In this document: positions 6,971 through 20,891 of the stretch, piece after piece | Layout of the letters: the number at the start of each line of letters is the position of its first letter | How positions within the stretch are numbered: the stretch's first letter is position 1 | IMG/VR virus record: IMGVR_UViG_2537561991_000013 | Coordinates: 1-26,414 of that record | DNA from: a virus | Taxonomy: Duplodnaviria; Heunggongvirae; Uroviricota; Caudoviricetes | Direction: 5' to 3' (one strand) | Length of the DNA stretch: 26,414 nucleotides | Notes under the pieces: generated by a model | The model's database searches: none | What the model saw: the letters and a program-made list of their open reading frames with translations, nothing else | What the model was told of the DNA's origin: nothing | Program-made: the position numbers and the translations under genes

Positions 6971-8719
6971 ATGACAGTGGCAAATTATAATTCTCTTGTC
7001 CAGAAAACTTTCTGCGAAAATGCAATTCGTTCCGTTGTCATGATTGATGACGATTTTCTGACGTATTCTGAATCAATCAGGGCGTTGAATAACGAAGTTG
7101 ATTTAGACTACAACAAAATTGACTCATCTAAACGAGCCGCTACTCTTGAGAGCTTTTTTCAATCTAAAAATATGATTTGTGATGTTGACAATGGTTCTGT
7201 TAATTTCGATGTGGATCGGATTAGAAAATCAGATCTTATTATTGTAGATTATCATCTTGATAATAATGCACCTGATAAAACACTTAAACTATTACAAGAT
7301 TTGAAAGACTCCGATCATTTAAATATGATTGTAATATATACTAGAGAGAATTTAGAAACGGTTTGGATGCAGATATCATCGACTCTCAAAGGTGCTCTGG
7401 ATATCAACAGCTTGATCATTGACTACGATAATGAAGATGTCCAAAGTTATTGGGAAGACGTTGTATTACCGAACTTAAATGATAATGGTAATAAAGCTCT
7501 CACAAGAGATGAAACAATAGCCTATATTAAAGACAGTAAGCCTTGTAGAAGAATTAAAAGATTAATACATGATGATGCTGTGTTGGAGGAACAAAAGGAT
7601 AAAAACTTCATTGCAAAAATGATTGCAGAATATGCTGTGTCTAGAAATGCAATTATTTCTAGCAACACATCTGGCAATGTCATTCGGGGTGATGAAAGCG
7701 GAGTAAAATGGATTCAATGTGGTAATATCTTTGTCTCCCTATTTCATAAGGTTCAAGATGATCATGAAAACGATGGAGATAGGATTTGGCAAACTCTCAA
7801 TGATTCTCTCATTGAATGGAAACCATCTTATTATCAGTTAATAAAATCTGAAATTCAGAATGCAATCGAAGCTGAGGCTTTATCTTTTGTAAATCATTTG
7901 GCTAACGATCATTACGGTCAAGCTGCGTGGTTAAATGAGATATTAAAATCAGACTCGCCTGATATTAGATGTAGAAATATTGACTTTGTATTTGGTAATT
8001 TATCAGAAGAGCTTTATCAAAGACTTAAAAATAATAATACGCTGGATGAATTTATCAAAAGTGTTTTTGATAGCTATTCAAATGAATACGCTAACAGCGG
8101 AGTTGCTGCATTGCTCCAATATTGCTCTTCAAAAATGGATCTGCCATCAAATAATGATACTTATCACGAAATGTATCATGCTTTAAATATGAATTTGTCT
8201 TCAAAGAATTTTGAAGATGGTCATATTTCTACTGGCACTATTTTCTTTGATACAGAGTCGAACAAATGGTATTTATGTGTATCTGCGGCATGTGATTTGG
8301 TTCCTACTCAGGGTAACGACCCTCACCATGTAAGATTAAGTCCGCACAGGCTCATTAAAGTTCTGGAGCTTTTTAACGCCAGTCAGAGTAAAGCATTGCC
8401 ATTTGCTGAACATTCGAAATATATATATGTAATGCATAAAAATCAAAGAAAATATCTCTCTATTTTCGAAGGGGATAAAACGCTTCCTGTTGTTGATTAT
8501 ATGGTGGTGTTGAATCATGGAACAACAGTTGATGGCGAAGAAAAAAATATTATTTCTGCCGTGTTTTTAAGTAATATGGATGGCAACGTGCAAAATGTTC
8601 CTGTCCGACTCAAACTTAAATCTCAACTGAGAACTGGTTATGCAGAAAGATATCAGGCTATAGCGTCTCAGTATAGCTCAAGGATTGGTGTGGATTATGT
8701 ATCAATGATGCTACCATAA
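6971..8719 (+). CDS. receiver (REC)-like N-terminal domain fused to an unassigned ~430-aa C-terminal domain
   Basis: ATG at 6971 is 1 nt after the kinase stop, with GGAGTGGAG as SD (the ORF track starts at 6953). N-terminus has REC-like beta1 VVMIDDD, beta3 DLIIVDYHLD, beta4 MIVIYT; the rest has no motif I can assign. AT-rich like the upstream gene. Confidence 0.55.
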   Translation: MTVANYNSLVQKTFCENAIRSVVMIDDDFLTYSESIRALNNEVDLDYNKIDSSKRAATLESFFQSKNMICDVDNGSVNFDVDRIRKSDLIIVDYHLDNNAPDKTLKLLQDLKDSDHLNMIVIYTRENLETVWMQISSTLKGALDINSLIIDYDNEDVQSYWEDVVLPNLNDNGNKALTRDETIAYIKDSKPCRRIKRLIHDDAVLEEQKDKNFIAKMIAEYAVSRNAIISSNTSGNVIRGDESGVKWIQCGNIFVSLFHKVQDDHENDGDRIWQTLNDSLIEWKPSYYQLIKSEIQNAIEAEALSFVNHLANDHYGQAAWLNEILKSDSPDIRCRNIDFVFGNLSEELYQRLKNNNTLDEFIKSVFDSYSNEYANSGVAALLQYCSSKMDLPSNNDTYHEMYHALNMNLSSKNFEDGHISTGTIFFDTESNKWYLCVSAACDLVPTQGNDPHHVRLSPHRLIKVLELFNASQSKALPFAEHSKYIYVMHKNQRKYLSIFEGDKTLPVVDYMVVLNHGTTVDGEEKNIISAVFLSNMDGNVQNVPVRLKLKSQLRTGYAERYQAIASQYSSRIGVDYVSMMLP

Positions 8720-8789
8720 TTATTATATTTTAGGCGTGGTGATTTTTTTCGCCATGCCTATTTTATATTTATCATCACAATGATGTTGT

Positions 8790-9101
8790 TTATTTTTGTT
8801 TAAGTCTTCTAAGCTTCATGCATTCTAATGAGAATAATAATAGAGTTGTGCTGTATATAAAGCCAGAGTTAGTTAATAACTTTAAATTTAATGCTTCAGG
8901 ATTTTCACTGAGAAAGTGAAAGGCATAAACTAAGTATACAGCTAAAGTAGCCGTTCCAATTGTTGGTCCAATATCGCCTTGATCATGAGGTTCAAGGTTT
9001 ACATTGAACTTGAAGATTAGCCATTCAAATCCCCAAGTAAAAAAAACAACTAATATCATGGCTGCGAATAATTTCGCGATGTTATCTGCTGATGGATTCA
9101 T
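8790..9101 (-). CDS. small hydrophobic protein (about 3 predicted TM segments), function unknown
   Basis: 103-aa ORF with three hydrophobic stretches (LFAAMILVVFFTWGF..., IGTATLAVYLVYAFHFL, FIYSTTLLLFSL); convergent with the kinase/receiver operon, AT-rich. Confidence 0.4.
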   Translation of the reverse strand: MNPSADNIAKLFAAMILVVFFTWGFEWLIFKFNVNLEPHDQGDIGPTIGTATLAVYLVYAFHFLSENPEALNLKLLTNSGFIYSTTLLLFSLECMKLRRLKQK

Positions 9102-9243
9102 CAGAACAGATTGTTTCTGAAAAAATTCACAAAGTGAGAGTCCGAAAAAAATAAAAAAAGTGGTCTGGAACTAAATTTTTCAAAAACTTTGAATAGGGTT
9201 TCCATTTTCTTTACCTTCAGGATTATATTAGCTATTCTGATAC

Positions 9244-10473
9244 TTAGGCTACCAGAGCATTTGATCTTTGAGCTTGAACGTAATCACTCCACCATTGCAT
9301 CAAACTCTGTCGCTCTATCAGATATTCTGCACGATTGTATGCTGCGATAATTTCATCTTTTTTCGAGTGGGCAAGCGCTGCCTCAAGAACTTCAGCTCTG
9401 AATTTACCAGACTCCTCTGCCGCTGTTCGTGCAATAGAACGCATACCGTGAGCTACAAGCTCGCCTCCGAACCCCATTCGGATGATAGCTGCGTTGGCTG
9501 TTTGTTCATGCATATGATTAAGAGGCGCTTTTATGCTGGGGAAAACCCATTCTCTATGCCCACTTATTGATTTCATTAATTCAAGGATGCGCAAAGCTTC
9601 TTTACTCAAAGGAACTTTGTGAAGCTTTTTCATTTTCATGAAATCAGCAGGAATGTTCCAAATGCTGTTGGTTGTATCAATATCAGACCACCTTGCGCGA
9701 ACGGCTTCACCCGGACGAACCCATGTCAACAATTGCCATTCAATTAGCATACGTGTTTCCAACCGGATTGACGCATTCGTCAAAGATTCCATAAACCTTG
9801 GCAATTCGCTTGGGGGAAGGGCAGGCATATTTTGCTTTTTTGGTTTACTGAATCTTTGACCAAGGTTGTCAGCCGGGTTGAACTCAATAAGTTCTTCAGT
9901 AGCTGCCCACCGGAAGATTTCATTCAGACGTGAAATGATACGGCGTAGAGTTTCCAATACGCCTCGTTGCTCAATAGGATCAAGGTGTTGTTTTAAGAGC
10001 TTAGGTCGGATCTCATTGATAGGGACATTACCCAGACCGGGAAAGACATTTCTCTCTAAGCTGCGCCAGATGTCTGCTGCATGGTCTTGTGAGATACCTG
10101 ATGTCTTTACCTTCTCATCTAACCATTTCCGCGCTACGGCTTGGAGAGTGTGCTCAGTAGCACTCTTTAATGCCTTCGCCTTATCGTTGTTATGGATTTG
10201 GGGATCAACACCATTTGCCAGAAAGGAGAGATATTCATCACGTAAGGCTCTGGCTCTTGCAAGGGTAAGGTGAGGATATGTCCCAAGGCTCATTTTGGTT
10301 CTTTTCTTGCTCACTGGTACTGCATACCTGAAATACCAATTTTTCTTGCCTCCTTTCGCCAAAGGAGCGATTCGTAGAATCAGACCATCACCGTCAAACA
10401 AGTTGATTTCTTTATCGGCTGGCTTGGTGCTTTTGATTTCAGTGTCAGTGAGCTTCTTAGCGATTTTTGCCAT
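9244..10473 (-). CDS. P4-type tyrosine integrase (CP4-57 IntA-like)
   Basis: ORF 9244..10515; likely start at ATG 10473 (MAKIAKKLTDTEIK...) with GAGGG RBS; C-terminal tyrosine-recombinase motifs (HGMRS...LAH...AAYNRAEY); sits 165 bp from the ssrA 3-prime fragment in the same orientation, as ssrA-intA does in K-12. Confidence 0.85.
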   Translation of the reverse strand: MAKIAKKLTDTEIKSTKPADKEINLFDGDGLILRIAPLAKGGKKNWYFRYAVPVSKKRTKMSLGTYPHLTLARARALRDEYLSFLANGVDPQIHNNDKAKALKSATEHTLQAVARKWLDEKVKTSGISQDHAADIWRSLERNVFPGLGNVPINEIRPKLLKQHLDPIEQRGVLETLRRIISRLNEIFRWAATEELIEFNPADNLGQRFSKPKKQNMPALPPSELPRFMESLTNASIRLETRMLIEWQLLTWVRPGEAVRARWSDIDTTNSIWNIPADFMKMKKLHKVPLSKEALRILELMKSISGHREWVFPSIKAPLNHMHEQTANAAIIRMGFGGELVAHGMRSIARTAAEESGKFRAEVLEAALAHSKKDEIIAAYNRAEYLIERQSLMQWWSDYVQAQRSNALVA

Positions 10474-10575
10474 TTTGGGACCCTCGGTTTTTGGACCCTT
10501 CTTAGTGGGTCCCATTCAGGGTGCCATAACTCGTAGTTCTCAGCAATTCTCACTGGACGACAATAGACGTAAAAA

Positions 10576-10608
10576 AGCCCGCAGAGCTTGTGCTGTGTGG
10601 GCTTAGTA
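10576..10608 (-). terminator. weak hairpin with U-tract between the att fragment and the integrase
   Basis: AGCCCGCA...TGTGGGCT inverted repeat (one mismatch) flanked by an A6 run on the plus strand (U-run on the minus strand). Confidence 0.3.
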
Positions 10609-10638
10609 GACTTCATTGAACTTCAAACAACTAAAAAG

Positions 10639-10674
10639 TGGTGGAGCTGGCGGGAGTTGAACCCGTATCCGAAA
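10639..10674 (-). other. partial copy of the 3-prime end of ssrA (tmRNA): att-type junction, not a functional tmRNA gene
   Basis: TGGTGGAGCTGGCGGGAGTTGAACCCGtaTCCGAAA is the reverse complement of the tmRNA 3-prime end (...GGACGCGGGTTCAACTCCCGCCAGCTCCACCA) with 2 mismatches; the match stops after ~36 nt and the rest of ssrA is absent. Confidence 0.75.
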
Positions 10675-10868
10675 AATTCTTAACCAATTGAATATTAATG
10701 ATTTTTCTAATTTAAAATACCTCACGTGCATTTTACGTGCATATTGTAGTACCTCTAACGTCCTGATTCTGTCCAACATTTTGAAGTGTTTAGGCGCCAC
10801 TGGGGCGGTGATTAGCGCTGTTTTGTGCTGTTCATAGCACTTCAAGACTATTCAATTCAGAGCAATCG

Positions 10869-10897
10869 TTGAAGAATTACCCGTAAGGTAATATCAT
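10869..10897 (+). promoter_or_regulatory. sigma-70-like promoter candidate (TTGAAG - 17 bp - TATCAT)
   Basis: -35 TTGAAG at 10869..10874 and -10 TATCAT at 10892..10897 with 17-bp spacing, upstream of the hairpin at 10932 and the ORF at 11009. Confidence 0.35.
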
Positions 10898-10931
10898 ACT
10901 ATTTAGGTAACTGCGGTTATCACCATCAAGG

Positions 10932-10967
10932 GCCACTGATGACGCTGTTATCATCAGTGGCTTTTTG
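10932..10967 (+). terminator. strong intrinsic-terminator-like hairpin (11-bp perfect stem GCCACTGATGA / TCATCAGTGGC, 8-nt loop, TTTTT tail)
   Basis: Perfect inverted repeat 10932..10942 / 10951..10961 followed by TTTTTG; about 40 nt upstream of the RBS of the 11009 ORF, so it may be an attenuator or the end of a ~60-nt RNA. Confidence 0.5.
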
Positions 10968-10970
10968 TAC

Positions 10971-10992
10971 CTTCACTGCACAGCCAGTGAAG
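10971..10992 (+). promoter_or_regulatory. 8-bp perfect inverted repeat (CTTCACTG-cacagc-CAGTGAAG) just upstream of the RBS of the 11009 ORF
   Basis: Inverted repeat ends 4 nt before GAGGAG (10997..11002); candidate operator or translational control hairpin. Confidence 0.35.
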
Positions 10993-11008
10993 TGTTGAGG
11001 AGACTAGC

Positions 11009-11350
11009 ATGAGAACAGTAGCGAGAAGATCGATACAGACGATTGAGCGTCGGACTCAACTCGTCAGTTCTTTTGTTGACTCAAACACAGCAAACGAGTT
11101 CTTCGTGAGAAGACTGAGTGATCGTGTCTCCCCGGCACGTCAGCTGTTTATTGTGACATTGAACAATGAGGTTCGTGACGGTGACGTGATCCCGTTCGCT
11201 GAGATCGCCATGAACAAAGAAAAATTGCGCTATGTTGTGAAGCCAGCAGATCAGTATCCTCAGTATGTAAGCAGTAATCTGCTGAAGAAAATTGAAGCGG
11301 CAATTGCTCTATACATGCAGAAGAACTACAGGGAAATTAACTACCATTAA
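11009..11350 (+). CDS. hypothetical protein (113 aa), first gene of a two-gene cassette at the int-proximal end of the prophage
   Basis: ORF with GAGGAG RBS at 6-nt spacing; no recognisable motif; followed 11 bp later by a second ORF. Confidence 0.5.
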   Translation: MRTVARRSIQTIERRTQLVSSFVDSNTANEFFVRRLSDRVSPARQLFIVTLNNEVRDGDVIPFAEIAMNKEKLRYVVKPADQYPQYVSSNLLKKIEAAIALYMQKNYREINYH

Positions 11351-11361
11351 AAGGTTGCTGA

Positions 11362-12129
11362 ATGGCTCCTGCGTTAATACCTTCATATAACAAGGACTTG
11401 AACATTACGCCATTTGGCGAAAAACGTCTTATTGAGTCATTCTATTTTTTCACTGCCGAGGCTGGCTTACTGAGGGCTGATGAGTACATTGTCAGTTCTG
11501 GTGAGTTTCAGTACTACTTGGATGTGTATCAACTGGGATGTTCCACCGACGACTTTTTTTTAGACTATGGCAGTGACCTTCTTGATTCGAAGGTTCCAAT
11601 GCAGGATCTGGTCAATACCCTCTTGGGTCTTGATATGGTAGACGATAACAAAACGATAAGAATAGGTCGTATACAGTTCAACGACTTTAATTTTATCGAA
11701 GAGAACGGTCAGATGATGACCGGAAAGCAAGTGAAAAGCGCTGTTATCGCACAGGATTTCCAATCAGCAGGTTTGGCGCGTGAGATCTATAAAATGCTTG
11801 CGCGAAAGCATGAGTTTCTCATCTGCGATAACATTCAAAGTATTGCCGGTGGTGCTCTTTGGGCTAGTAGCATCATTCGAATTGCCGAGGTACGGATCTA
11901 CAATTCACGCACGAAGAAATTTATGGACATACTTGGTCCAGGTGCGCGTGGCGTTTCAGGTACTTTGCCATGGAGTGCGAATGATCTGTCTGTAGATGAG
12001 ATTGTTCGCTGGGGTCGTGCGTATGATGATGAAAACTGTTGTCGTCACATTGTACATGTTATCTGTAAGGACCGACTCATTGACGATCAATTTCATGATT
12101 ATGTTTCGATAGGTGGCGCGACAGAATAA
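11362..12129 (+). CDS. hypothetical protein (255 aa), second gene of the cassette
   Basis: ORF closely following the 113-aa gene; no recognisable motif; ends at a bidirectional terminator shared with the integrase. Confidence 0.5.
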   Translation: MAPALIPSYNKDLNITPFGEKRLIESFYFFTAEAGLLRADEYIVSSGEFQYYLDVYQLGCSTDDFFLDYGSDLLDSKVPMQDLVNTLLGLDMVDDNKTIRIGRIQFNDFNFIEENGQMMTGKQVKSAVIAQDFQSAGLAREIYKMLARKHEFLICDNIQSIAGGALWASSIIRIAEVRIYNSRTKKFMDILGPGARGVSGTLPWSANDLSVDEIVRWGRAYDDENCCRHIVHVICKDRLIDDQFHDYVSIGGATE

Positions 12130-12141
12130 CCATCAAAAAGA

Positions 12142-12164
12142 CCCGGCATTTGCCGGGTTTTTTC
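12142..12164. terminator. bidirectional intrinsic terminator (CCCGGC-ATTT-GCCGGG flanked by A-run and T-run)
   Basis: 6-bp GC stem with AAAAAG upstream and TTTTTTC downstream; sits between the convergent 11362..12129 gene and the integrase. Confidence 0.6.
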
Positions 12165-12170
12165 TTCAAA

Positions 12171-13349
12171 TCACTTCTTCATTCCAGATTCCATTGCGGT
12201 TTTCCCGTCGTATTCAGCCAGGTATTTACCGTAATTGCGGAACAGCATTTCCGGCCCCTTATGCCCCATCTGCCCGGCAAGCCAGAAAAGGTTTACACCC
12301 TGGCTAATGTGTCTGGTGGCGAATGTGTGGCGCGTCTGGTACGGGTTACGGTAGCGCACACCAGCTTTTTTCAGGGTCGGCACCCATGCTTTTTTACGGA
12401 TAGCGTCGGCGTTCGTCCAGGGATCTCCCGTTTTCGGATCGCTGAATATGAACTCACTTTTCATAAAGGTGTATTGCTTCTGCGCCTGCAGGGCCGCCAG
12501 CGCCTCACTGTTCAGCTCCACCTTACGGGTACCGGCTTTTGTCTTGGTGCCTTTAAGTACCCCTACGACACTGGCCGCCTGTATGTGCGCTGTATTACCT
12601 ATAAAGTCGATATCGGTCCAACGTAATGCGCATAGCTCAGAGCTGCGTAGCCCTGTATTGAAGGCGAAGCGGAACAGATTCTGCCATTCCTGATACTTGC
12701 AGTGCTGATATATGGCACTGGTTTCCGCAGGCGCAAACGGATCAACTTCGTAATCGTCGGCGTTCGGTTTACTGTCGACCACGTGATACCGGCTGGCGCT
12801 GACAAGAGTTACCGGGTTAATAGTCAACAGGCCATCAGTTACAGCCTCATCAATGGCGCTGCGCAGAAATGACAGGTTATTCCTGATTGTTTTCAGCTTA
12901 GTTTTTCGGCTGGCTATCCAATTTTTTAGTACCGCAGGCGTCAATTCTGTTACATGTAGTTTATGTAGTTCTGATAGTGCTGATAGACATTTTTCGTAAC
13001 CGCCAATGGTTGACGGCGACAGATTGCGGTTCATGCAAATTTTCAGGTATTCATCAAGATAGGACTTAATATTTTTGGTTTTCTTTACTACACCGAATAA
13101 CTCCAGTTTTTTGGAACTGGGGAAATATTTCGCATATTCAAACGTTCCGCTGGCGATCTGATTTTGTATCTCCCCTAGCAGGCGCTCAGCATATTTAATA
13201 CCACGTGTATTTGCCTCAAGCCGAGACAGGGGCTCCCTGCAAAGAACCCCTTTATATGTGAAAGTGATAACTAGTGTTGAAGCAGTTTTATGCTTACGAA
13301 TAGTTACTCCTCTTGGCAGAGATAATAATCCTTGTTCTTTCTTGCCCAT
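12171..13349 (-). CDS. lambdoid-phage tyrosine integrase (not lambda Int)
   Basis: 392-aa ORF from ATG 13349; C-terminal catalytic motifs RHTFATRH...GHKGPEMLFRNYGKY; an overlapping excisionase-like gene lies upstream. Confidence 0.85.
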   Translation of the reverse strand: MGKKEQGLLSLPRGVTIRKHKTASTLVITFTYKGVLCREPLSRLEANTRGIKYAERLLGEIQNQIASGTFEYAKYFPSSKKLELFGVVKKTKNIKSYLDEYLKICMNRNLSPSTIGGYEKCLSALSELHKLHVTELTPAVLKNWIASRKTKLKTIRNNLSFLRSAIDEAVTDGLLTINPVTLVSASRYHVVDSKPNADDYEVDPFAPAETSAIYQHCKYQEWQNLFRFAFNTGLRSSELCALRWTDIDFIGNTAHIQAASVVGVLKGTKTKAGTRKVELNSEALAALQAQKQYTFMKSEFIFSDPKTGDPWTNADAIRKKAWVPTLKKAGVRYRNPYQTRHTFATRHISQGVNLFWLAGQMGHKGPEMLFRNYGKYLAEYDGKTAMESGMKK

Positions 13350-13513
13350 TTTGAAACCTCTATTAAGTCGACCCAGCGTTCTTTAACTCCGTCGACTTTT
13401 AATACATGAACCCCTTCTTTCCATATTCCTCTTTGTATCCGTTTGTTAACGGCATCAACCGTTTCTCCCGCGTCGCGGCAGTAGGTTGATATAGGCACGC
13501 AATCCAGCCCCAT
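13304..13513 (-). CDS. excisionase-like small DNA-binding protein
   Basis: 69-aa ORF overlapping the integrase start by 46 bp (typical xis-int arrangement); basic, with W/K-rich C-terminus. Confidence 0.5.
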   Translation of the reverse strand: MGLDCVPISTYCRDAGETVDAVNKRIQRGIWKEGVHVLKVDGVKERWVDLIEVSKWARKNKDYYLCQEE

Positions 13514-13671
13514 ACATCACCTCACATAACACTCAGCCCACGGCAGTGGCACCACACGTCAAACATTCGCTTCACAACTTCACGACAGTAGAAGCCGTCA
13601 ACATCTCGCGTCAGGTTATAGCGATTGCCGTAACGCTGGTGGACCCATTGTTCAAATGCTTTATTCATTCT

Positions 13672-13950
13672 TTACTTCCTTTTTATGGCTCGTAATTTTT
13701 TCAGGTGCTTTTCCTGCTCAGTGTCCGCGAGAATTTTGCGGTACTCCTGGTGGTCAATATGTTCGAACAGGCAGTTTAACTCACCAATGCGTACCCGCCC
13801 GGATCGTCCGTCCATCCGTCGAAAGAACACTGAGTGCTCAGTGATGCGAGTAATCACCACGGGGTATCCGGCTCTGTCCGTGTATATCTGACCGCGTTGA
13901 ATCAAAGCGAACATGTGGTTATCCCCATCGACAAATTGAGAACACAACAA
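13672..13950 (-). CDS. hypothetical small phage protein
   Basis: 92-aa ORF in the leftward early operon; no motif assigned; start codon uncertain. Confidence 0.4.
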   Translation of the reverse strand: MLCSQFVDGDNHMFALIQRGQIYTDRAGYPVVITRITEHSVFFRRMDGRSGRVRIGELNCLFEHIDHQEYRKILADTEQEKHLKKLRAIKRK

Positions 13951-14037
13951 ACGCTACTGCGAATACCACCCCCAGAGTTACGATTGCATCAGGCCAGCTC
14001 ATTGATTCACCTCCTGCGGCGTCCTGGTATTCGATTT

Positions 14038-14606
14038 TCATTCCGGATGCTCCTGAGCCACATTGAAATCGCCATGATCACGACAAGGCATCACAACAAA
14101 TTCAGGATTGCCATACATTGAGTTGATGATGGAATCAAACTGAATTCTGACCGCTTGCCCGTCACCGGAGGAACGTAACTGGACGGGAATAAATTTACGC
14201 TCACGACCAAACATCTTCTCTGGATAACTCAGGTAACCCGCCTGGATCACCGGGTGTGTACAGAGGTCAAATTTTTTCGGAATGATGCGTTCCAAATCCG
14301 GAAAACAACCGTCCACCAATTTAATGCCGGTAATGGACAGCCGGCGCTGAAACTGGTCGCGATGAACAGGATCGGCTCTTTACTAAAAATCAGCTCTGTC
14401 GTTTCGGCTTTGGCCGGGACGCCACCTTCGAACTGGACAATGATGTTTTTCTTCGTCCGGATGCCGTGAGTCATGCGCAGTGCTACGAAACCATTGGTTG
14501 CCTCAATATGTTTTGGCGTGATGTGAAGACCGTTCAGGTAATAACGAACGTCGTTTTTAGCAGCGCACACCAGAGCGGCGCGAATAAGTTTTGACTGGAT
14601 GATCAT
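14038..14606 (-). pseudogene. DNA polymerase III beta-clamp (DnaN)-like gene split into two overlapping frames (frameshift or authentic disruption)
   Basis: ORF 14247..14606 has KNDVRYYLNGLHI...EATNGFVALRM (compare DnaN QDVRYYLNGMLFE...VATDGHRLAV); ORF 14038..14319 in another frame has VDGCFPDLERIIPKK (compare DnaN VDGRFPDYRRVLPKN). Together they are about half the length of cellular DnaN. Confidence 0.5.
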
Positions 14607-15352
14607 GCTTTATCCTCCCATCCGATTACCTGAAAAAGCCCCATCTTCGGGTGATACCAGCGTGTGCCGCGTGGTTCAGCCTCTGACATCATTTGGTGGA
14701 ACGCCGCCATAAATGTCTCAAGCTCGACGACAGCCCTGCGAGACAACAGACCGTCCGGAGTCATAAATTCGTGCGTGTCGGTAGGGATGTGGTAGGCGTT
14801 GACCAGATTCCGACACTTGGCGTCACTCATTCCGCTTTTGGCTACCACCTGGCGGTAACCGACATATCCGGTGCGCATTGTGCCGCGTTTGATGTTCTCC
14901 ACAGCTTTGGTGACCGTTTCGATCTTCTCTTCAACATGACTCAGGCGCTTCTGCTGGCGAACGGCATCGGCGGCCATTGCAGCGATCATCTCCATTTCCG
15001 TCAGCGGCGCGTGAGTTCGGAAATAGCTGTTAACCAGTTCGCGCTGAACCTGCCATGCAAGAGCATCGTTAAAAGGCTTCGTCAACATCAGGTAACCAGA
15101 CTCGAAAAGAATGATCCCTTTGGCAGTTCGCGCGGCAAAGGCATCAGAAAGTGACTCCGTACGTATTACGTCCGCAGTCATTTCAAGAAAATCCACCCCT
15201 TCGATAAAGTGAGAACGGTTGCGGTTAAACGCAGCACGGGCGGTACCTTCCGGGCGCTGGTGGACGTCATCAATTATTGCAAATGTCACAACACGCTGAC
15301 CGCGATATTCGATTACCGGAAACTGTTTGTTGTTGATGGTTACAATATTCAT
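14603..15352 (-). CDS. phage ORF6N-domain protein (antirepressor-like)
   Basis: Start at ATG 15352 (MNIVTINNKQF...) with GGAGAT RBS; N-terminal segment VVTFAIIDDVHQRPEGTARAAFNRNRSHFIEGVDFLEMT resembles the ORF6N signature (RN...F.EG.DF..LT); the domain assignment is from memory. Confidence 0.5.
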   Translation of the reverse strand: MNIVTINNKQFPVIEYRGQRVVTFAIIDDVHQRPEGTARAAFNRNRSHFIEGVDFLEMTADVIRTESLSDAFAARTAKGIILFESGYLMLTKPFNDALAWQVQRELVNSYFRTHAPLTEMEMIAAMAADAVRQQKRLSHVEEKIETVTKAVENIKRGTMRTGYVGYRQVVAKSGMSDAKCRNLVNAYHIPTDTHEFMTPDGLLSRRAVVELETFMAAFHQMMSEAEPRGTRWYHPKMGLFQVIGWEDKA

Positions 15353-15395
15353 TTTTATCTCCAGACAGCCCGGCGTGTAATACCGGGCATATGTA

Positions 15396-16223
15396 TTACT
15401 TAACCTGAATAAATGGTGTGTTGGCACCGCTGGTCATGTATTGCGGCAGTGTACCGTTCCACTTGTTGATGGCTTCCAGCTCCATAACACCGGGGTTCTG
15501 GCGCAGAGCTTCACCGCGTAAACGAATAGCATCGGCTTCGGCCTGGGCTTTTGTGCGAATCGCATCTGCCTGTCCGGCAGCTTCCGCGCGCAACATGTTG
15601 GCTTCCGCTTCGCGCTGTTTTACTTCCTGCTCGCGTTGCAGGGTTTTCTGGTTCGCCGTGACTTTGGCATTAATGCTGTCGATAACAGTAGGTGGGTACT
15701 CCGGCTTACCCACATATGAGAGGCTCATTACCTGAATACCGATGGGCGTCATTTCTTCCTGAATGTCTTTAAGAGCTGCATCCAGCAGCTCAGACTTGCC
15801 GCCGTCGATAAATTTGTCGGTGGTCATTTTGCTGGCCAGTCGGTTGAGTGCGTCGGCTATCTTCTGGCGCAGGTCGGTGTCGGTAATGTCGTCCACGCCT
15901 TTGCGGTAGGTCTGAAAGACTGTGGTAACTTTGGATGGATCAACTTTGTAGGCCACGCCGATGTGATAGCCGATGGTTGTACCGTCACTCATCTGGAAAC
16001 TGAATGGATCATCGTAGGTCTTCATCTGCTTAAAGGTCGGGAAGATGTAAACCTCAGTGTTCCATCCCGTCCAGTAGCGCCCAACACCGACCACTTCACC
16101 GACGCCTTTATCGTCGCCCAGTTTGTTTACTTTGATGCCCACATTACCAGGCTCAACGCGATCGCAACCGACAAGGCCAATGGTCGGCAGAACAAGGGCT
16201 AAAGCAAAAAGTAATTTTTTCAT
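15396..16223 (-). CDS. SPFH/band-7 (prohibitin-like) lipoprotein
   Basis: Signal peptide with lipobox (MKKLLFALALVLPTIGLVGC), SPFH-like core and an Ala/Glu-rich coiled-coil C-terminus (AEANMLRAEAAGQADAIRTKAQAEADAIRL). Confidence 0.6.
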   Translation of the reverse strand: MKKLLFALALVLPTIGLVGCDRVEPGNVGIKVNKLGDDKGVGEVVGVGRYWTGWNTEVYIFPTFKQMKTYDDPFSFQMSDGTTIGYHIGVAYKVDPSKVTTVFQTYRKGVDDITDTDLRQKIADALNRLASKMTTDKFIDGGKSELLDAALKDIQEEMTPIGIQVMSLSYVGKPEYPPTVIDSINAKVTANQKTLQREQEVKQREAEANMLRAEAAGQADAIRTKAQAEADAIRLRGEALRQNPGVMELEAINKWNGTLPQYMTSGANTPFIQVK

Positions 16224-16408
16224 CTTTTATCCTTAGAAAAAGAAAGACCCTTATAAATGGCATAAATGCAGGGCGGGGTCAGACACGCCAGAGCAAAGCC
16301 AGAAATCACTGCTACCGTATCCTTCATTGATATGAGGGCCGGAACGATTAATCCGTAAATACATGTGATAATTGCCAGTGATATAACTATTCTGAAATAA
16401 ATGTTCAT
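16220..16408 (-). CDS. small membrane protein (2 predicted TM), translationally coupled to the SPFH gene
   Basis: 62-aa hydrophobic ORF whose stop overlaps the SPFH start by 4 nt. Confidence 0.45.
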   Translation of the reverse strand: MNIYFRIVISLAIITCIYGLIVPALISMKDTVAVISGFALACLTPPCIYAIYKGLSFSKDKR

Positions 16409-16468
16409 GGTCCTCCTGATGTATTCGGCTTGCCTTATTTAATTGCGTCATGGTTAATTTCGTTTACG

Positions 16469-16861
16469 TCAGAATGGTTTTGTTGCCATCAGTTCGTAAT
16501 ATCCGGCGCTCCATGTGTCATATTTTCTGAACCATTTTTCTGTATACTGTTTCCTGGCGATGAGTCTGCGCAGTCGTCTGATTGTTCGCTGGTGTGCGCG
16601 GGTATACTCTGTGGTTGATTCTCCACGTTTCCATATCTCATTCCTGTTGAAGATAAAACGCTTGTCAGGATAGCGTTGTCGGAATCCTGAACGTTCAAAA
16701 GCGCGGGTGGTCATAAAGAATGCCAGGTAACGAATTGCCGTTTTTCGGGTGAGGCATTTTTTTGTTCTTCCGTGGCGTGTTACAAAAAATAACGGGCCGA
16801 CGGGTGTATCATGTTTCTGTAATGCCTGGTCAATGGTGCTGGCGGTGCGGTTGTCGATCAT
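16469..16861 (-). CDS. hypothetical basic phage protein
   Basis: 130-aa ORF, Arg/Lys-rich; no motif assigned. Confidence 0.4.
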   Translation of the reverse strand: MIDNRTASTIDQALQKHDTPVGPLFFVTRHGRTKKCLTRKTAIRYLAFFMTTRAFERSGFRQRYPDKRFIFNRNEIWKRGESTTEYTRAHQRTIRRLRRLIARKQYTEKWFRKYDTWSAGYYELMATKPF

Positions 16862-17076
16862 TTCTTTATTTCTCCCGAATAACGTTCATGACTCATTACT
16901 TCCCAGTTCCGGCCGTCGTCTTTCGATAACAGCCGCCAGCGACGGTTAACCTTCAGACTGAGATATCCGGTGCGCTGTATCCGATGCGGAAATATCCGTC
17001 GGCATCGGTACAACAACAGGACCTGCAATGCCTGCCGGTGGATCCGCTCAGGAATGCGTGTTGCTGTTAATGCCAC
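16858..17076 (-). CDS. hypothetical small protein
   Basis: 72-aa ORF overlapping the downstream start by 4 nt; overlaps 17048..17263 in another frame, so one of the two may be spurious. Confidence 0.3.
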   Translation of the reverse strand: MALTATRIPERIHRQALQVLLLYRCRRIFPHRIQRTGYLSLKVNRRWRLLSKDDGRNWEVMSHERYSGEIKK

Positions 17077-17263
17077 CGGTTTCCTCCTGAGCAGGTGCTG
17101 TTATCTGATACCCCGCTCTTTCTGCCAGCCGTATGAATGTATCCATGCTGGCAATCAGCTCGCCATCGCGGACTTTGCAGACACCTGTGACTTGGCCATT
17201 TTCAATTGTCATAACGATCTGCACTTTTTCGTGCACAACAGATACAGGGGATAAATTAGCCAT
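17048..17263 (-). CDS. hypothetical small protein
   Basis: 71-aa ORF, start/stop coupled with 17263..17622. Confidence 0.35.
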   Translation of the reverse strand: MANLSPVSVVHEKVQIVMTIENGQVTGVCKVRDGELIASMDTFIRLAERAGYQITAPAQEETGGINSNTHS

Positions 17264-17622
17264 CAGTTAATTCCTCCGCTGATATATTTTTCTTTCGCGT
17301 AATCAATAATCTCTTGAAAAAGGTTGTCTATAATTAACTTTCCGGTTTCAGTCAGGTATTCAGTATGTTGATTAATCCCGATAGCATTCTGGTATGCAGT
17401 GTGGATTTCGGTTTCACCCTCCACCCGGCCCAATTCACCACGGGTAATACCTTCGAAGCGTAACAGCAACTGGTTTATAAACTGTTCAGTTATTTCTATG
17501 GTCGTAATGTTCCCATCAGGAAGGTCAACAATAAGCAGATTACCACCTGTTTTACGTTTTATTCGATGGAGTGCCGCAACAGCTATACGGCGACGATATG
17601 TATTAATGGGTTCATGTGTCAT
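17263..17622 (-). CDS. hypothetical phage protein
   Basis: 119-aa ORF in the leftward early operon. Confidence 0.45.
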   Translation of the reverse strand: MTHEPINTYRRRIAVAALHRIKRKTGGNLLIVDLPDGNITTIEITEQFINQLLLRFEGITRGELGRVEGETEIHTAYQNAIGINQHTEYLTETGKLIIDNLFQEIIDYAKEKYISGGIN

Positions 17623-17806
17623 TTGTTATTTCCCGTATGCTTTCCTGAGAAACAGTATTGCAACTGACCAGTATCCTGCATTAGCCATTAATAATGCGGT
17701 TTTATAAGCACTTCTGTTTTTCATGCATCACCACCATTTTCAGGTTGTGGAAATTCCCGACCAGAGACCGTTATGTTTTTATGGGTGATTGTTTATTGAG
17801 TTTTCT

Positions 17807-17998
17807 TTATTCGTTGCGCAGTGTGTCGATATACGCGTAAGCCATTTCACAGGTTTTATTCATGGAGCGAATGAGGCAACATAAATAATCGTCTGTCTCT
17901 CCTGAGTCGGGCGAATTCTTAAATATAAATTCAAGCATTGATGTATTCTCTTTTATTTGTGCTGCCACTTCCTCAAGAATATTTAATGGAGTTTTCAT
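17807..17998 (-). CDS. hypothetical small protein
   Basis: 63-aa ORF, stop/start overlapped with 17995..18219. Confidence 0.35.
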   Translation of the reverse strand: MKTPLNILEEVAAQIKENTSMLEFIFKNSPDSGETDDYLCCLIRSMNKTCEMAYAYIDTLRNE

Positions 17999-18219
17999 GT
18001 TCTTTGCTCCTTAAATGCATCGCATGCGCTTCTGGCGTATTGTTGTGCCAGTAAAAAGATATCATCCGAAAGTTCATCACATTCTTCATCACCGGAAGCC
18101 GAAATGATTAACCCCGCTTCAAGCAGTACGGCAATGTGATGAAAAGTTGTCTCCGGTTCGTTGGTAAGGCCTTTGAACATTTTCATCTTATGCTTCCTCC
18201 TGATTTTGTTTATAAGCAT
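17995..18219 (-). CDS. hypothetical small protein
   Basis: 74-aa ORF between the HTH gene and the 63-aa ORF. Confidence 0.35.
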   Translation of the reverse strand: MLINKIRRKHKMKMFKGLTNEPETTFHHIAVLLEAGLIISASGDEECDELSDDIFLLAQQYARSACDAFKEQRT

Positions 18220-18607
18220 CAGTCAATAACAACATTGGATCACAGCCAAGAACATTAGCCAGAGGGATAAGCATGCTGATGGTTGGTTCGTACTCTCCGC
18301 TCTCCCACTGGATGATAATTTCTTCATCGAGATCGAGCAGCCTAGCGAGTTCGGCGGTTGTTAAGCCGCAGGTTTCGCGTTGGGTGCGAATCCGATTCTG
18401 GGAATTAATAGCTAAATTTTGTTTGCATAAACGTGACGCGGTGAGGCTATATTTTTGAGTTACAGCCAGGATGGAGCTGGCAAGTTCAATTAACTCAGGG
18501 TTATTGCTGCTATACAGTAGTGCACCAGTCCCTACTAAGAGCTGAATATTCTCAAGAGCATCGTGCTGATTTGTTGGTAATCCCATATACGATGACATTT
18601 TTCTCAT
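18188..18607 (-). CDS. HTH (XRE-family) DNA-binding protein, first gene of the leftward early operon
   Basis: C-terminal half has an XRE-type HTH (GLTTAELARLLDLDEEIIIQWESGEYEPTISMLIPLANVLGCDP); CGATAAA-type half-sites lie in its upstream region (18640..18690). Confidence 0.5.
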   Translation of the reverse strand: MRKMSSYMGLPTNQHDALENIQLLVGTGALLYSSNNPELIELASSILAVTQKYSLTASRLCKQNLAINSQNRIRTQRETCGLTTAELARLLDLDEEIIIQWESGEYEPTISMLIPLANVLGCDPMLLLTDAYKQNQEEA

Positions 18608-18696
18608 CCTCTATAATTGCTTTGGTGAGTTCGATACCTATGTCAAGATAATAGGTTTACCGATTTCACCTGTCAATCGGTTTATCGATTTTTTCC

Positions 18697-18723
18697 CAAA
18701 AAAAAGCCCACTTAAGAGTGGGC
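18697..18723 (-). terminator. intrinsic terminator of the repressor gene (GCCCACT-TAAG-AGTGGGC with U-run on the minus strand)
   Basis: 7-bp stem preceded on the plus strand by A9, i.e. a U-tract after the hairpin on the minus strand; 19 bp downstream of the cI-like stop. Confidence 0.6.
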
Positions 18724-18741
18724 GGGTTAAATGATTTTTGC

Positions 18742-19434
18742 TTATGCAAAACGGTGTAGTGTCATAGGCCAACTGACAATTACTTTTCCGTCAATGTGAA
18801 GTTGTTCGAAGTCTTCCGGTTCGATAGCCCAATCCTTGTAAGCTGGGTTGTCAGATATCACCGTTAGAGTATCTTTGATTTTTTGAAGTCTTTTGATGTG
18901 CGATGTTCCAGAGTATGTAAAGGCGTATATACCATCACCATTAAATGTGCGAACTGATACATCTACAAATACCAAGTCTTCAGGGTCTATTGTGCCTTTC
19001 ATACTGTCGCCGTGGGCGTTTATTGCTTTGATTGCTGATGCTGGTCTGCCGCCAAAAACTCTTGATGCGTATCCTGGTTCTATCGCTATAGATCTGACAA
19101 TATCAGGAAAATCAGAGTTATAACTACCAGGTCCGCAACTATATCTGATGTCTAAAACATCCACGACATACGAATCAGTAACCCAATCTTCAGAAATGTT
19201 ACGTATTTGGTGTGAGTCTGCAGAGGTCACGATTTCCATTGGGCCAACACCCGATGCGAGCCATTCCGGGTTAACGCCCAAAACTTTTGCTATTTCGACT
19301 GTTTTTCTGGAACCGTTGGCTTTGTTAAGTAGTTGATTAACACTGGACTGAGCCATACCCACTTCTTTGGCCAGCCTACCTTGCGTAAATTTTGCGTTGC
19401 GCATAGCTAAATCAAGTCGTTCTGAAAATGTCAT
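18742..19434 (-). CDS. CI-like prophage repressor (N-terminal XRE HTH, C-terminal S24 LexA-like peptidase domain)
   Basis: 230-aa ORF; N-terminal HTH (FTQGRLAKEVGMAQSSVNQLL), C-terminal GDSM serine motif and downstream lysine; divergent from a Cro-like gene. Confidence 0.8.
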   Translation of the reverse strand: MTFSERLDLAMRNAKFTQGRLAKEVGMAQSSVNQLLNKANGSRKTVEIAKVLGVNPEWLASGVGPMEIVTSADSHQIRNISEDWVTDSYVVDVLDIRYSCGPGSYNSDFPDIVRSIAIEPGYASRVFGGRPASAIKAINAHGDSMKGTIDPEDLVFVDVSVRTFNGDGIYAFTYSGTSHIKRLQKIKDTLTVISDNPAYKDWAIEPEDFEQLHIDGKVIVSWPMTLHRFA

Positions 19435-19466
19435 TGCGATTTTCCTCCCCTCTCTATCTTGGCTAG

Positions 19467-19486
19467 TTTATCGGCTTTCCGATAAA
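19467..19486. promoter_or_regulatory. operator-like palindrome TTTATCGG-CTTT-CCGATAAA in the cI/cro intergenic region
   Basis: Perfect 8-bp inverted repeat with a 4-bp spacer between the divergent repressor and Cro-like genes; related CGATAAA half-sites recur at 18640..18690. Confidence 0.5.
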
Positions 19487-19553
19487 TATTCTATGTTTAA
19501 CGTTGAATATCGCTTTTCCTGTTGTTATTATGCGTTCAATAGGAGATGCGATT

Positions 19554-19841
19554 ATGAAACATAAAGCCATAGAGAAAGCTATTGAGATTCTTGGAAGTCA
19601 GCAAGCCTTAGCCAAGCGATGCGGAAAGGCCCAGTCAACAGTCTGCGATTGGTTGAACTGCAAGAACAAGATTTCACCAGAATTTGTGCCGTTATTGGTT
19701 GCAGCTGTCGACGGAAAGATCCAAGCGTATGAATTTCGGCCAGACCTACCAGAGCTTTTTCCACATCCAAGCTTAGCGCGCACGGGGGAGGTGAAGGGCT
19801 TGTATGTCCCAGAATTACGTTCAGACAGAGATGCCATCTAG
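19554..19841 (+). CDS. Cro/YdaS-like small HTH regulator
   Basis: ATG at 19554 with AGGAG RBS at 8-nt spacing (ORF track starts at 19503); MKHKAIEKAIEILGSQQALAKRCGKAQSTVCDWLN... is an HTH; divergent from cI. Confidence 0.6.
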   Translation: MKHKAIEKAIEILGSQQALAKRCGKAQSTVCDWLNCKNKISPEFVPLLVAAVDGKIQAYEFRPDLPELFPHPSLARTGEVKGLYVPELRSDRDAI

Positions 19842-20112
19842 GTACTGCCAGGCAGACGAAGAGTGGATTCAGCAGCAGTTACAGGGGCTGCCTCCGTCAC
19901 TGAGACGGAAGGTTGCCCTGAAATATGCGGAGGTATACGAAATCACTTTTGACGCTGAGCCTGTTTCATTCCGCAAGGAGAACAGAGCAAGGCACGAAGC
20001 AAACACAAGGCTCCGCCTGTTTGTAAGAAATCAGGGCAGAGCTTTACAGGGGTATACAGCCGAACCTCCCCTGGCTGGATCGCAATCGCGCTCCTCACTG
20101 TTTCGGGTTTAA
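19804..20112 (+). CDS. hypothetical protein in the cII position; possibly a remnant
   Basis: 102-aa ORF overlapping the Cro-like gene; no motif assigned; followed by ~780 bp with no credible ORF. Confidence 0.3.
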   Translation: MSQNYVQTEMPSRYCQADEEWIQQQLQGLPPSLRRKVALKYAEVYEITFDAEPVSFRKENRARHEANTRLRLFVRNQGRALQGYTAEPPLAGSQSRSSLFRV

Positions 20113-20891
20113 AGGTACCCGAACAGAAGCAGGCTTAAAGGTGCCTGTTCAGGTTGGCAACCAACTGACCCAACTCCTCATGTGTACTAGGGAAGTAGTA
20201 CGTTTTTATGGGGAAGAGGGTAAGGGGGGTAAGGGGGGATTGGGTGTTGGGGCAGGAATAGGGTCTTTTCCAACAGGAGAGATCCATTGGTTAAGTAGAT
20301 CACTGTCTTAAGGGCGCAATTTAAAAAAACGCCCGTATCAGCAAGGTAGTACAAAGCGCTCAGGCGCTGAGAAACGAAAAGGGTTCTTCCTGGAAGAGTG
20401 ATTGAAGAGGTGTTCAGAGGTAAATGCACTGAATGTTATTCACGAACATATGAAGTGAATGCCACGCATGAAGAATTCACCGTTGAGTGTGTGATGAATA
20501 CTGATAAATGCCGAATGGTATCCGCTGAATTACAGCCAGTGTGTTGAGCGACCTTATTATCCATGCGCGGTATTGTCGCCGTATTCCTGCATTAACAGAG
20601 ACCGCAGCCCGACAGGGAGACTCCTCTGCGAGAGTGTGCGGGGATAATCAAAAACGATACACACCGGGGTTTACCGCGTAAACGGAGCGCGGCGTTGTCC
20701 CCTCATGGTCGCTGGTCCGGTGCGATGGTGGAAGAAACCGGACGATGTGTTACCTCGCAAACTCTGTTATGTCATGTGTCTGATTTGTGATTTAAGTCGG
20801 ATAATTGTCATTGCCATTAAGCAGAGGATTGATGACCGACAGGGCTGCATTGTTAGAATAAGACTTATTCTTATCTATGCCGGGAATAAAA

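Follow-up and report, generated by a model that had tools for sequence, protein, structure and literature searches.

The whole stretch of viral DNA analysed here (26,414 nucleotides, hereafter the window) contains two overlapping reading frames that resemble the β sliding clamp, DnaN, and the question is whether they represent two genes, one gene broken by mutation or by a sequencing error, or one gene whose frames are joined by recoding, and what a protein of this kind would do. A preliminary description took the locus for a frameshifted DnaN-like gene of about half the length of a clamp in a lambdoid early-left operon. This description is supported, as the locus lies between an ORF6N gene and xis/int, on the int strand and downstream of a CI-like repressor gene. 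The coordinates and motifs that it gave for the two open reading frames (ORFs) were exact, and both motifs align to Escherichia coli DnaN. The 119-aa ORF (14247-14606, minus strand) starts with MIIQSKLIRAALVCAAKNDVRYYLNGL and includes DVRYYLNGL (14526-14552), which aligns with DnaN residues 150-158 (DVRYYLNGM). The 93-aa ORF (14038-14319, minus strand) starts with (L)VDGCFPDLERIIPKK, and VDGCFPDLERIIPKK (14272-14316) aligns with DnaN residues 237-251 (VDGRFPDYRRVLPKN). ORFs are also present on the plus strand across the region (14254-14469 and 14466-14594), and the region 14038-14606 is accounted for by the minus-strand gene, whose parts are as follows.

14038..14606, minus strand: the whole mini β-clamp gene, a probable pseudogene allele of 569 nt (intact relatives, 570 nt and 189 codons), as aligned to the intact PEC240 gene.
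14370..14606, minus strand: native-frame 5΄ part, codons 1-79 (M1 to I79), carrying DVRYYLNGL and ATNGF.
Between 14370 and 14369, minus strand: one-G deletion, a gap at alignment column 238 that is neither in a homopolymer nor at a slippery site.
14247..14369, minus strand: out-of-frame tail of the 119-aa ORF, 40 non-native codons followed by a TGA stop.
14038..14369, minus strand: native 3΄ part (intact codons 80-189), now in a different frame, carrying VDGCFPDLERIIPKK, QAGY and FVVMPCR.
14271..14277, minus strand: A6 run AAAAAAT, CCGAAAAAATTT, a slippery-type heptamer in the shifted frame and a frameshift site in relatives.

The motifs in the two parts have counterparts in the clamp: DVRYYLNGL and ATNGF contain the equivalents of DnaN R152/L155 and T172/G174/H175, respectively, QAGY occupies the positions of N320/Y323, and FVVMPCR corresponds to V360-R365. 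The alignment with the PEC240 gene contained a single gap, at which a G is absent at gene nucleotide 237/238 (intact, GCCGATCGCTGTTC; window, GCCGATC-CTGTTC). Because this is the only gap and the intact gene encodes one 189-aa protein, the two ORFs represent one gene. The frame break had been expected inside the overlap of the ORFs (14247-14319); instead, the missing G lies 50 nt upstream of it in the direction of the gene, at 14370|14369.

We searched 5426 complete E. coli genomes by megablast and found the stretch in 60 of them. The match in E. coli E110019 covered 569 of 569 nt, and among the matches listed, 29 records besides E110019 each span 570 nt, one base more than the query. When an 81-nt probe over the lesion was used, the extra base was present in 52 of the 53 complete E. 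coli genomes matched, and E110019 alone was without it; RefSeq labels the identical sequence in this finished genome as 'frameshifted'. The survey of homologous prophages for an intact frame, which the preliminary description had proposed, gave the same picture: a single ORF of 185-211 codons was found in 77 of 80 related viral contigs (IMG/VR), a sample from a family-alignment search that yielded close enterobacterial relatives only.

If the frame break were a sequencing or assembly error, the gene would really be intact in this strain. The window is a draft contig of the 2010 era (ADUO01000161.1, assembly GCA_000188775.2; a 12.4-kb locus of this contig is contained exactly in the reverse complement of the window), and drafts often carry single-base indel errors. 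However, the site of the missing G (GATC|GCTG) lies outside any homopolymer, and the same 569 nt were found not only in the finished E110019 chromosome but also in 10 of 10 fetched loci (eight NCBI assemblies and two ENA metagenomes, the latter as scaffolds). The exact 119-aa ORF was present in 288 index blocks of the assembly collection and on 203 contigs, and one intact variant was present on 873 contigs. With the allele this reproducible, an error is extremely improbable.

A programmed –1 ribosomal frameshift of the dnaX or IS3 transposase style, which would join the frames into a full-length protein, was another option raised beforehand, and two observations are consistent with it: the 3΄ frame is offset by –1 from the 5΄ frame, and the heptamer A AAA AAT at 14271-14277 lies in the 5΄ frame. 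However, no heptamer of the form X XXY YYZ was found at or near 14369/14370, and the nearest one in the gene, A AAA AAT, is 95 nt further on. Slippage at that distance would garble about 31 codons across the invariant GxFPD segment. The two-frame layout is, moreover, not conserved, since nearly all relatives (in the E. coli genomes and viral contigs counted above) have a single intact ORF. We therefore consider recoding highly improbable.

The remaining option of the preliminary description, a pseudogene, is the one that the evidence picks. The median dN/dS among intact copies was 0.089 (731 pairs, 67 unique sequences), and these copies are thus under strong purifying selection; the intact gene is functional and the window allele probably a loss allele, with a lesion that is reproducible in independent assemblies. 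Translation of the window allele would yield 79 native residues followed by 40 out-of-frame residues, and the FPD linker, the N/Y helix and the C-terminal VVMPxR strand would all fall outside the translated frame; it is from the loss of the C-terminal 110 residues from the frame that we infer the loss of function. The deletion might also have produced a split gene with working fragments, that is, the N-terminal 79 residues alone or together with a C-terminal piece initiated at TTG 14319 or ATG 14250. The allele is common, occurs with three integrase modules and has undergone no secondary decay, as would be expected of such a gene, but a recent origin explains the identity of all copies equally well. 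The break also lies inside domain II, before its last strands and the FPD linker, the whole pocket is in neither fragment, and by inspection of the sequence the internal starts have no convincing ribosome-binding site. A split gene is thus quite improbable, and a pseudogene remains the reading that we prefer.

The deletion allele itself has spread. The 7-kb early-left operon that includes the deletion is at least 99.86% identical across the deletion-allele loci, yet it is joined to three xis/int modules, which encode a 392-aa integrase, a 428-aa integrase adjoining mlrA and a 437-aa integrase adjoining yecN/cmoA. The breakpoints between operon and modules correspond to window positions ~13509-13538, just upstream of xis (loci L010, L011 and L014). 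Three xis/int modules and attachment sites on one operon indicate recent swapping of integrase modules among these prophages, and the deletion is a heritable allele that was kept through this exchange. The allele has also been named: the GenBank submitter name for the 119-aa ORF is 'putative DNA polymerase III beta subunit, central domain protein'. Public records thus already carry annotations of the family and of this frameshift.

Two kinds of variation were observed besides the deletion. In E110019, an IS3-family element lies between the 40-aa ORF and the DUF4222 gene (L001/L013, 6784-7997; equivalent to window ~13900-13950), and this insertion is absent from the window and from most other carriers of the deletion allele. 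Independent frameshift alleles were found at the A6 run (14271-14277) in other E. coli, Shigella, Salmonella and Klebsiella assemblies, for example P0041 (a cluster of 64 member sequences with a representative on 25 contigs), P0049 and P0053. The A6 run is a mutational or sequencing hot spot that is separate from the lesion in the window.

We then asked whether the protein is a clamp homologue. With a single sequence as the query, the curated cut-offs of DnaN families were not reached in Pfam (PF02767, 15.2 bits against a cut-off of 27, E = 0.027) or NCBIfam (TIGR00663, 18.5 bits against a cut-off of 137.65, E = 7.7e-4), and a phmmer search of the PDB was likewise below threshold (E ~0.02); a family profile was needed to show clamp homology. 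Database searches returned relatives of ~188 aa in Salmonella, Klebsiella, Kluyvera, Cronobacter, Citrobacter, Serratia, Providencia and others, and a profile of 21 relatives matched E. coli-type β clamps in the PDB with E = 2.2e-13. The similarity to DnaN on which the preliminary description depended is therefore significant by profile search, and alignment with E. coli DnaN by hhalign gave a probability of 98.2%. The AlphaFold2 model of a relative that is 81% identical to the intact E. coli protein (pLDDT 84.6, pTM 0.82) had, as its best BFVD matches, phage 'DNA polymerase III beta subunit' proteins of 180-215 aa. With an exhaustive profile search, 952 representative clusters were obtained at E < 1e-10, and nearly all of the best 150 of these 952 representatives are 170-215 aa in length; by tblastn, the family was present in 245 phage records.

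The protein also matched phrog_3007 over its full length (E = 2.9e-64, residues 1-179 on profile positions 3-188 of 190). The PHROG label of this family, 'RusA-like Holliday junction resolvase', was considered as an alternative identity and rejected, since Pfam, NCBIfam, PDB-sequence and fold searches gave it no support and returned sliding clamps; it is likely a mislabel. The label has been passed to RefSeq phage records such as NC_025458, NC_054650 and NC_021563, although in the GenBank originals of these records the protein is called 'DNA polymerase III beta subunit' or 'beta-clamp'. The intact E. coli orthologue (99.1% nucleotide identity) is WP_021501358.1, which NCBI names 'beta clamp domain-containing protein'. 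One 90%-identity cluster (that of P0210 and P0211) contains both the intact E. coli mini-clamp and an unrelated 249-aa ORF6N protein, which is its representative; because of this clustering artefact, the initial search for homologues did not return the intact E. coli protein. No match to PADLOC defence models was obtained. Short phage homologues of the polymerase III β subunit that cover domains II and III only were already noted in 2011 (Kazlauskas & Venclovas, PMC3201878), and this bioinformatic note is the sole mention of the mini-clamp family, with no experimental characterisation, that we found in the literature on phage-encoded clamps and DnaN-like proteins, on clamp domains II and III in phages, on clamp-binding motifs in prophages, on anti-defence and on β*.

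The architecture was examined with a profile of 134 diverse representatives (20-44% identity). In this alignment, DnaN residues 136-253 correspond to the N-terminal 110 residues of the mini-clamp and DnaN 314-366 to its C-terminal part, which includes FNxxY (DnaN N320 and Y323) and the terminal VVMPMRL. Narrower profiles place the middle of the protein on DnaN 254-292 instead, an ambiguity that arises because the halves of clamp domains are internal repeats. We favour placing the C-terminal part on the second half of domain III, on the basis of a 16-bit HMM segment, the conserved N/Y helix and the single β-α-β-β-β unit of the predicted model, which ends in the C-terminal strand. On that reading, the protein would consist of DnaN domain II and the C-terminal half of domain III, without domain I and DnaN 254-313. 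The mini-clamp, at 189 aa, is not the three-domain protomer of ~366 aa. Mutation of I272/L273 makes β monomeric (PMC11139829), and neither the segment containing these residues nor domain I, which form the head-to-tail dimer interface, has a counterpart in the mini-clamp.

The peptide-binding pocket, on the other hand, is represented throughout. The pocket of the clamp that receives the clamp-binding motif (CBM) comprises subsite I (R152, L155, T172, G174, H175, R176, L177, P242, R246, V247, V360 and M362) and subsite II (H175, N320, Y323, V344, M362, P363, M364 and R365) (PMC11139829). All 18 of the 18 CBM pocket positions fall in aligned columns, and eight are conserved at 90% or above in the family. 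Pocket residues make up eight of the ten most conserved columns (R152 99%, G174 99%, P242 99%, M362 96%, L155 96%, P363 92%, T172 90% and H175 90%), followed among pocket residues by Y323 (86%), R365 (81%) and N320 (71%). The median conservation was 0.83 for pocket columns and 0.30 for the others (Mann-Whitney test, P = 1.2e-6), an enrichment that is partly built in, because the same residues are the most conserved in DnaN and were present in the profile that recruited the relatives. In the E. coli prophage variant, four sites differ from the consensus of the pocket (H175 to F, N320 to Q, M364 to C and R176/L177 to V/A). The prophage protein has an isoelectric point of 9.3 and the family a median of 8.3, compared with 5.25 for DnaN, and high values have been tied to clamp homologues that have no loader and possibly bind DNA directly (PMC3201878).

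The intact protein would thus retain both subsites of the CBM pocket without the ring-forming parts, and would be basic. From the kept pocket, the loss of domain I and the interface segment and the basic character, we infer that intact copies are most likely non-ring, pocket-bearing modules that bind CBM proteins; pocket function, ligand and oligomeric state are all predictions from sequence. Candidate ligands would be host Pol III α, δ, Hda and the TLS polymerases, or a phage partner, and the effect might be either recruitment of such proteins to phage DNA or their titration at an early stage of induction. The idea of the preliminary description that such a protein could hijack or titrate clamp-binding host factors fits a conserved peptide-binding pocket, although the gene in the window is broken, so that the proposed mechanism would not be operating here.

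Intact mini-clamps might instead oligomerise and serve as a processivity factor for a polymerase, encircling or binding DNA, instead of working as decoys or adaptors. The replication module is where lytic siphoviruses carry the gene, flanked by genes for a ParB-like nuclease and a helicase, which agrees with such a role, as do the retention of a pocket that tethers polymerases and a high isoelectric point like that of loader-independent viral clamps that bind DNA directly (PMC3201878). However, domain I and the interface segment DnaN 254-313 are absent, the annotation of Serratia phage Eta lists no DNA polymerase, and the gene calls over window positions 8247-20606 (from int to just past the cro-like gene) include no polymerase gene. 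In Shewanella phage 1/41, moreover, the gene is an isolated insertion among tail genes. We judge a role as a processivity factor, the main alternative for the intact family, to be unlikely. Taking these points together, the gene in the window is very probably an early-left accessory gene for a 189-aa mini β-clamp, composed of DnaN domain II and the C-terminal half of domain III, that was killed by an inherited one-G deletion and whose intact copies would be non-ring pocket modules.

The early-left genes are arranged in the order CI-like repressor, several small genes, ParE-like, SPFH, ORF6N, mini-clamp, 40-aa ORF, DUF4222, xis and int, and ATGA start/stop overlaps couple the mini-clamp gene to both of its neighbours. 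The relevant neighbours are the following.

14603..15352, minus strand: ORF6N-domain protein gene, 249 aa, translationally coupled upstream of the mini-clamp gene, with a C-terminal domain that ends in RWYHPKMGLFQVIGW.
13919..14041, minus strand: 40-aa hydrophobic ORF, coupled downstream.
16858-17076, minus strand: ParE-like toxin-family gene in the same operon.
15396-16223, minus strand: SPFH/Band_7 gene in the same operon.
9244-10473, minus strand: second tyrosine integrase gene, 409 aa, ~1.7 kb beyond the prophage int.

The mini-clamp gene occupies the same position in prophages of Klebsiella, Serratia and Providencia. The earlier statement that a clamp homologue is unusual for a lambdoid early region was accordingly overstated, given that 60 of the 5426 complete E. 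coli genomes carry the gene, that it recurs in prophages throughout Enterobacterales and that short homologues were reported in 2011 (PMC3201878). The proteins encoded by the coupled upstream genes are 224-346 aa in length and differ in their N-terminal DNA-binding domains, which include ORF6N, Phage_pRha and others (window 14603-15352; L017 3303-4004; L022 2664-3416; L023-L102). They share a C-terminal domain, absent from Pfam, that ends in RW[YQH]HP[KNE][MF]G[LG]F, and this ending was found at 64 of 84 loci compared with 3 of 1562 background ORFs, a count that reflects one homologous domain and not independent events. The upstream gene and the mini-clamp gene may possibly form a two-gene module.

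We also considered the 'KMGLF' tail of the ORF6N protein as a clamp-binding motif that docks in the pocket of the mini-clamp. This candidate was rejected, since AlphaFold2 places residues 226-240 in β-strands of a folded domain (pLDDT ~88) and not in a disordered tail, and only the synteny of the two genes stands.

We tentatively propose that intact members might be natural minimal, ringless copies of the pocket that act as phage decoys or adaptors for host CBM proteins, that in enterobacterial prophages they might work as a two-gene module with the coupled Bro-N/ORF6N/Rha-type protein, whose DNA-binding domain is exchanged while its C-terminal domain keeps its place beside the mini-clamp gene, and that the spread of the broken allele over three integrase modules might mean that the gene is dispensable or costly for the lysogen. 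This combined proposal is possible, but we would not call it probable.

Several known systems provide comparisons. The mini-clamp shares homology and the clamp fold with E. coli DnaN (366 aa, PDB 1MMI), but it is half as long, is without domain I and the segment DnaN 254-313, and has an isoelectric point of 9.3 instead of 5.25; it also falls far below the cut-offs of TIGR00663 and of Pfam (PF00712, PF02767 and PF02768), and is borne by a prophage in an early-left operon. The gene in the window is a member of the PHROG 3007 family (170-215 aa), with WP_021501358.1, Serratia phage Eta gp10 and Shigella phage DS8 QCQ57356.1, but its copy is frameshifted and is not a single ORF of ~170-215 codons. 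Within the family, members of the enterobacterial prophage subfamily lie in the PL operon beside ORF6N/Rha-type genes and not in a replication module.

A natural clamp derivative reportedly described by Skaliter, Paz-Elizur and Livneh in 1996 is β*, which is said to be a UV-inducible internal product of dnaN of ~26 kDa that consists of domains II and III. It reportedly starts near DnaN residue 135, keeps the whole of domain III and forms a trimeric ring. Both β* and the mini-clamp are thus natural clamp derivatives without domain I, but the mini-clamp has in addition lost half of domain III and is encoded by a diverged gene of its own.

Twort gp168 (PDB 7EVP) and Mu MuC (PMC12867686) have in common with the mini-clamp the manipulation of the β-clamp interaction network by a phage. 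Both are ligands of the host clamp without being homologous to it, whereas phages with a mini-clamp carry a copy of the pocket itself.

The copy in the window matters little, as it is most probably a dead accessory prophage gene whose frameshift and clamp similarity have been publicly flagged. The family is of more interest, because hundreds of diverged phage and prophage lineages keep a clamp fragment with the docking pocket for polymerases, the clamp loader, Hda and repair proteins, but have dropped the ring-forming parts. If the predicted binding of CBM proteins is true, mini-clamps would represent a new phage route into the interaction hub of the host replisome and a natural minimal scaffold for work on inhibitors of the clamp pocket.

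Two further observations concern related elements. The second integrase gene in the window suggests that elements are integrated in tandem. Salmonella phage Fels-1 (L003, 4001-4321) matches residues 80-187 only, with 71% identity, over two annotated hypothetical ORFs, and its copy appears to be a truncated or recombined remnant.
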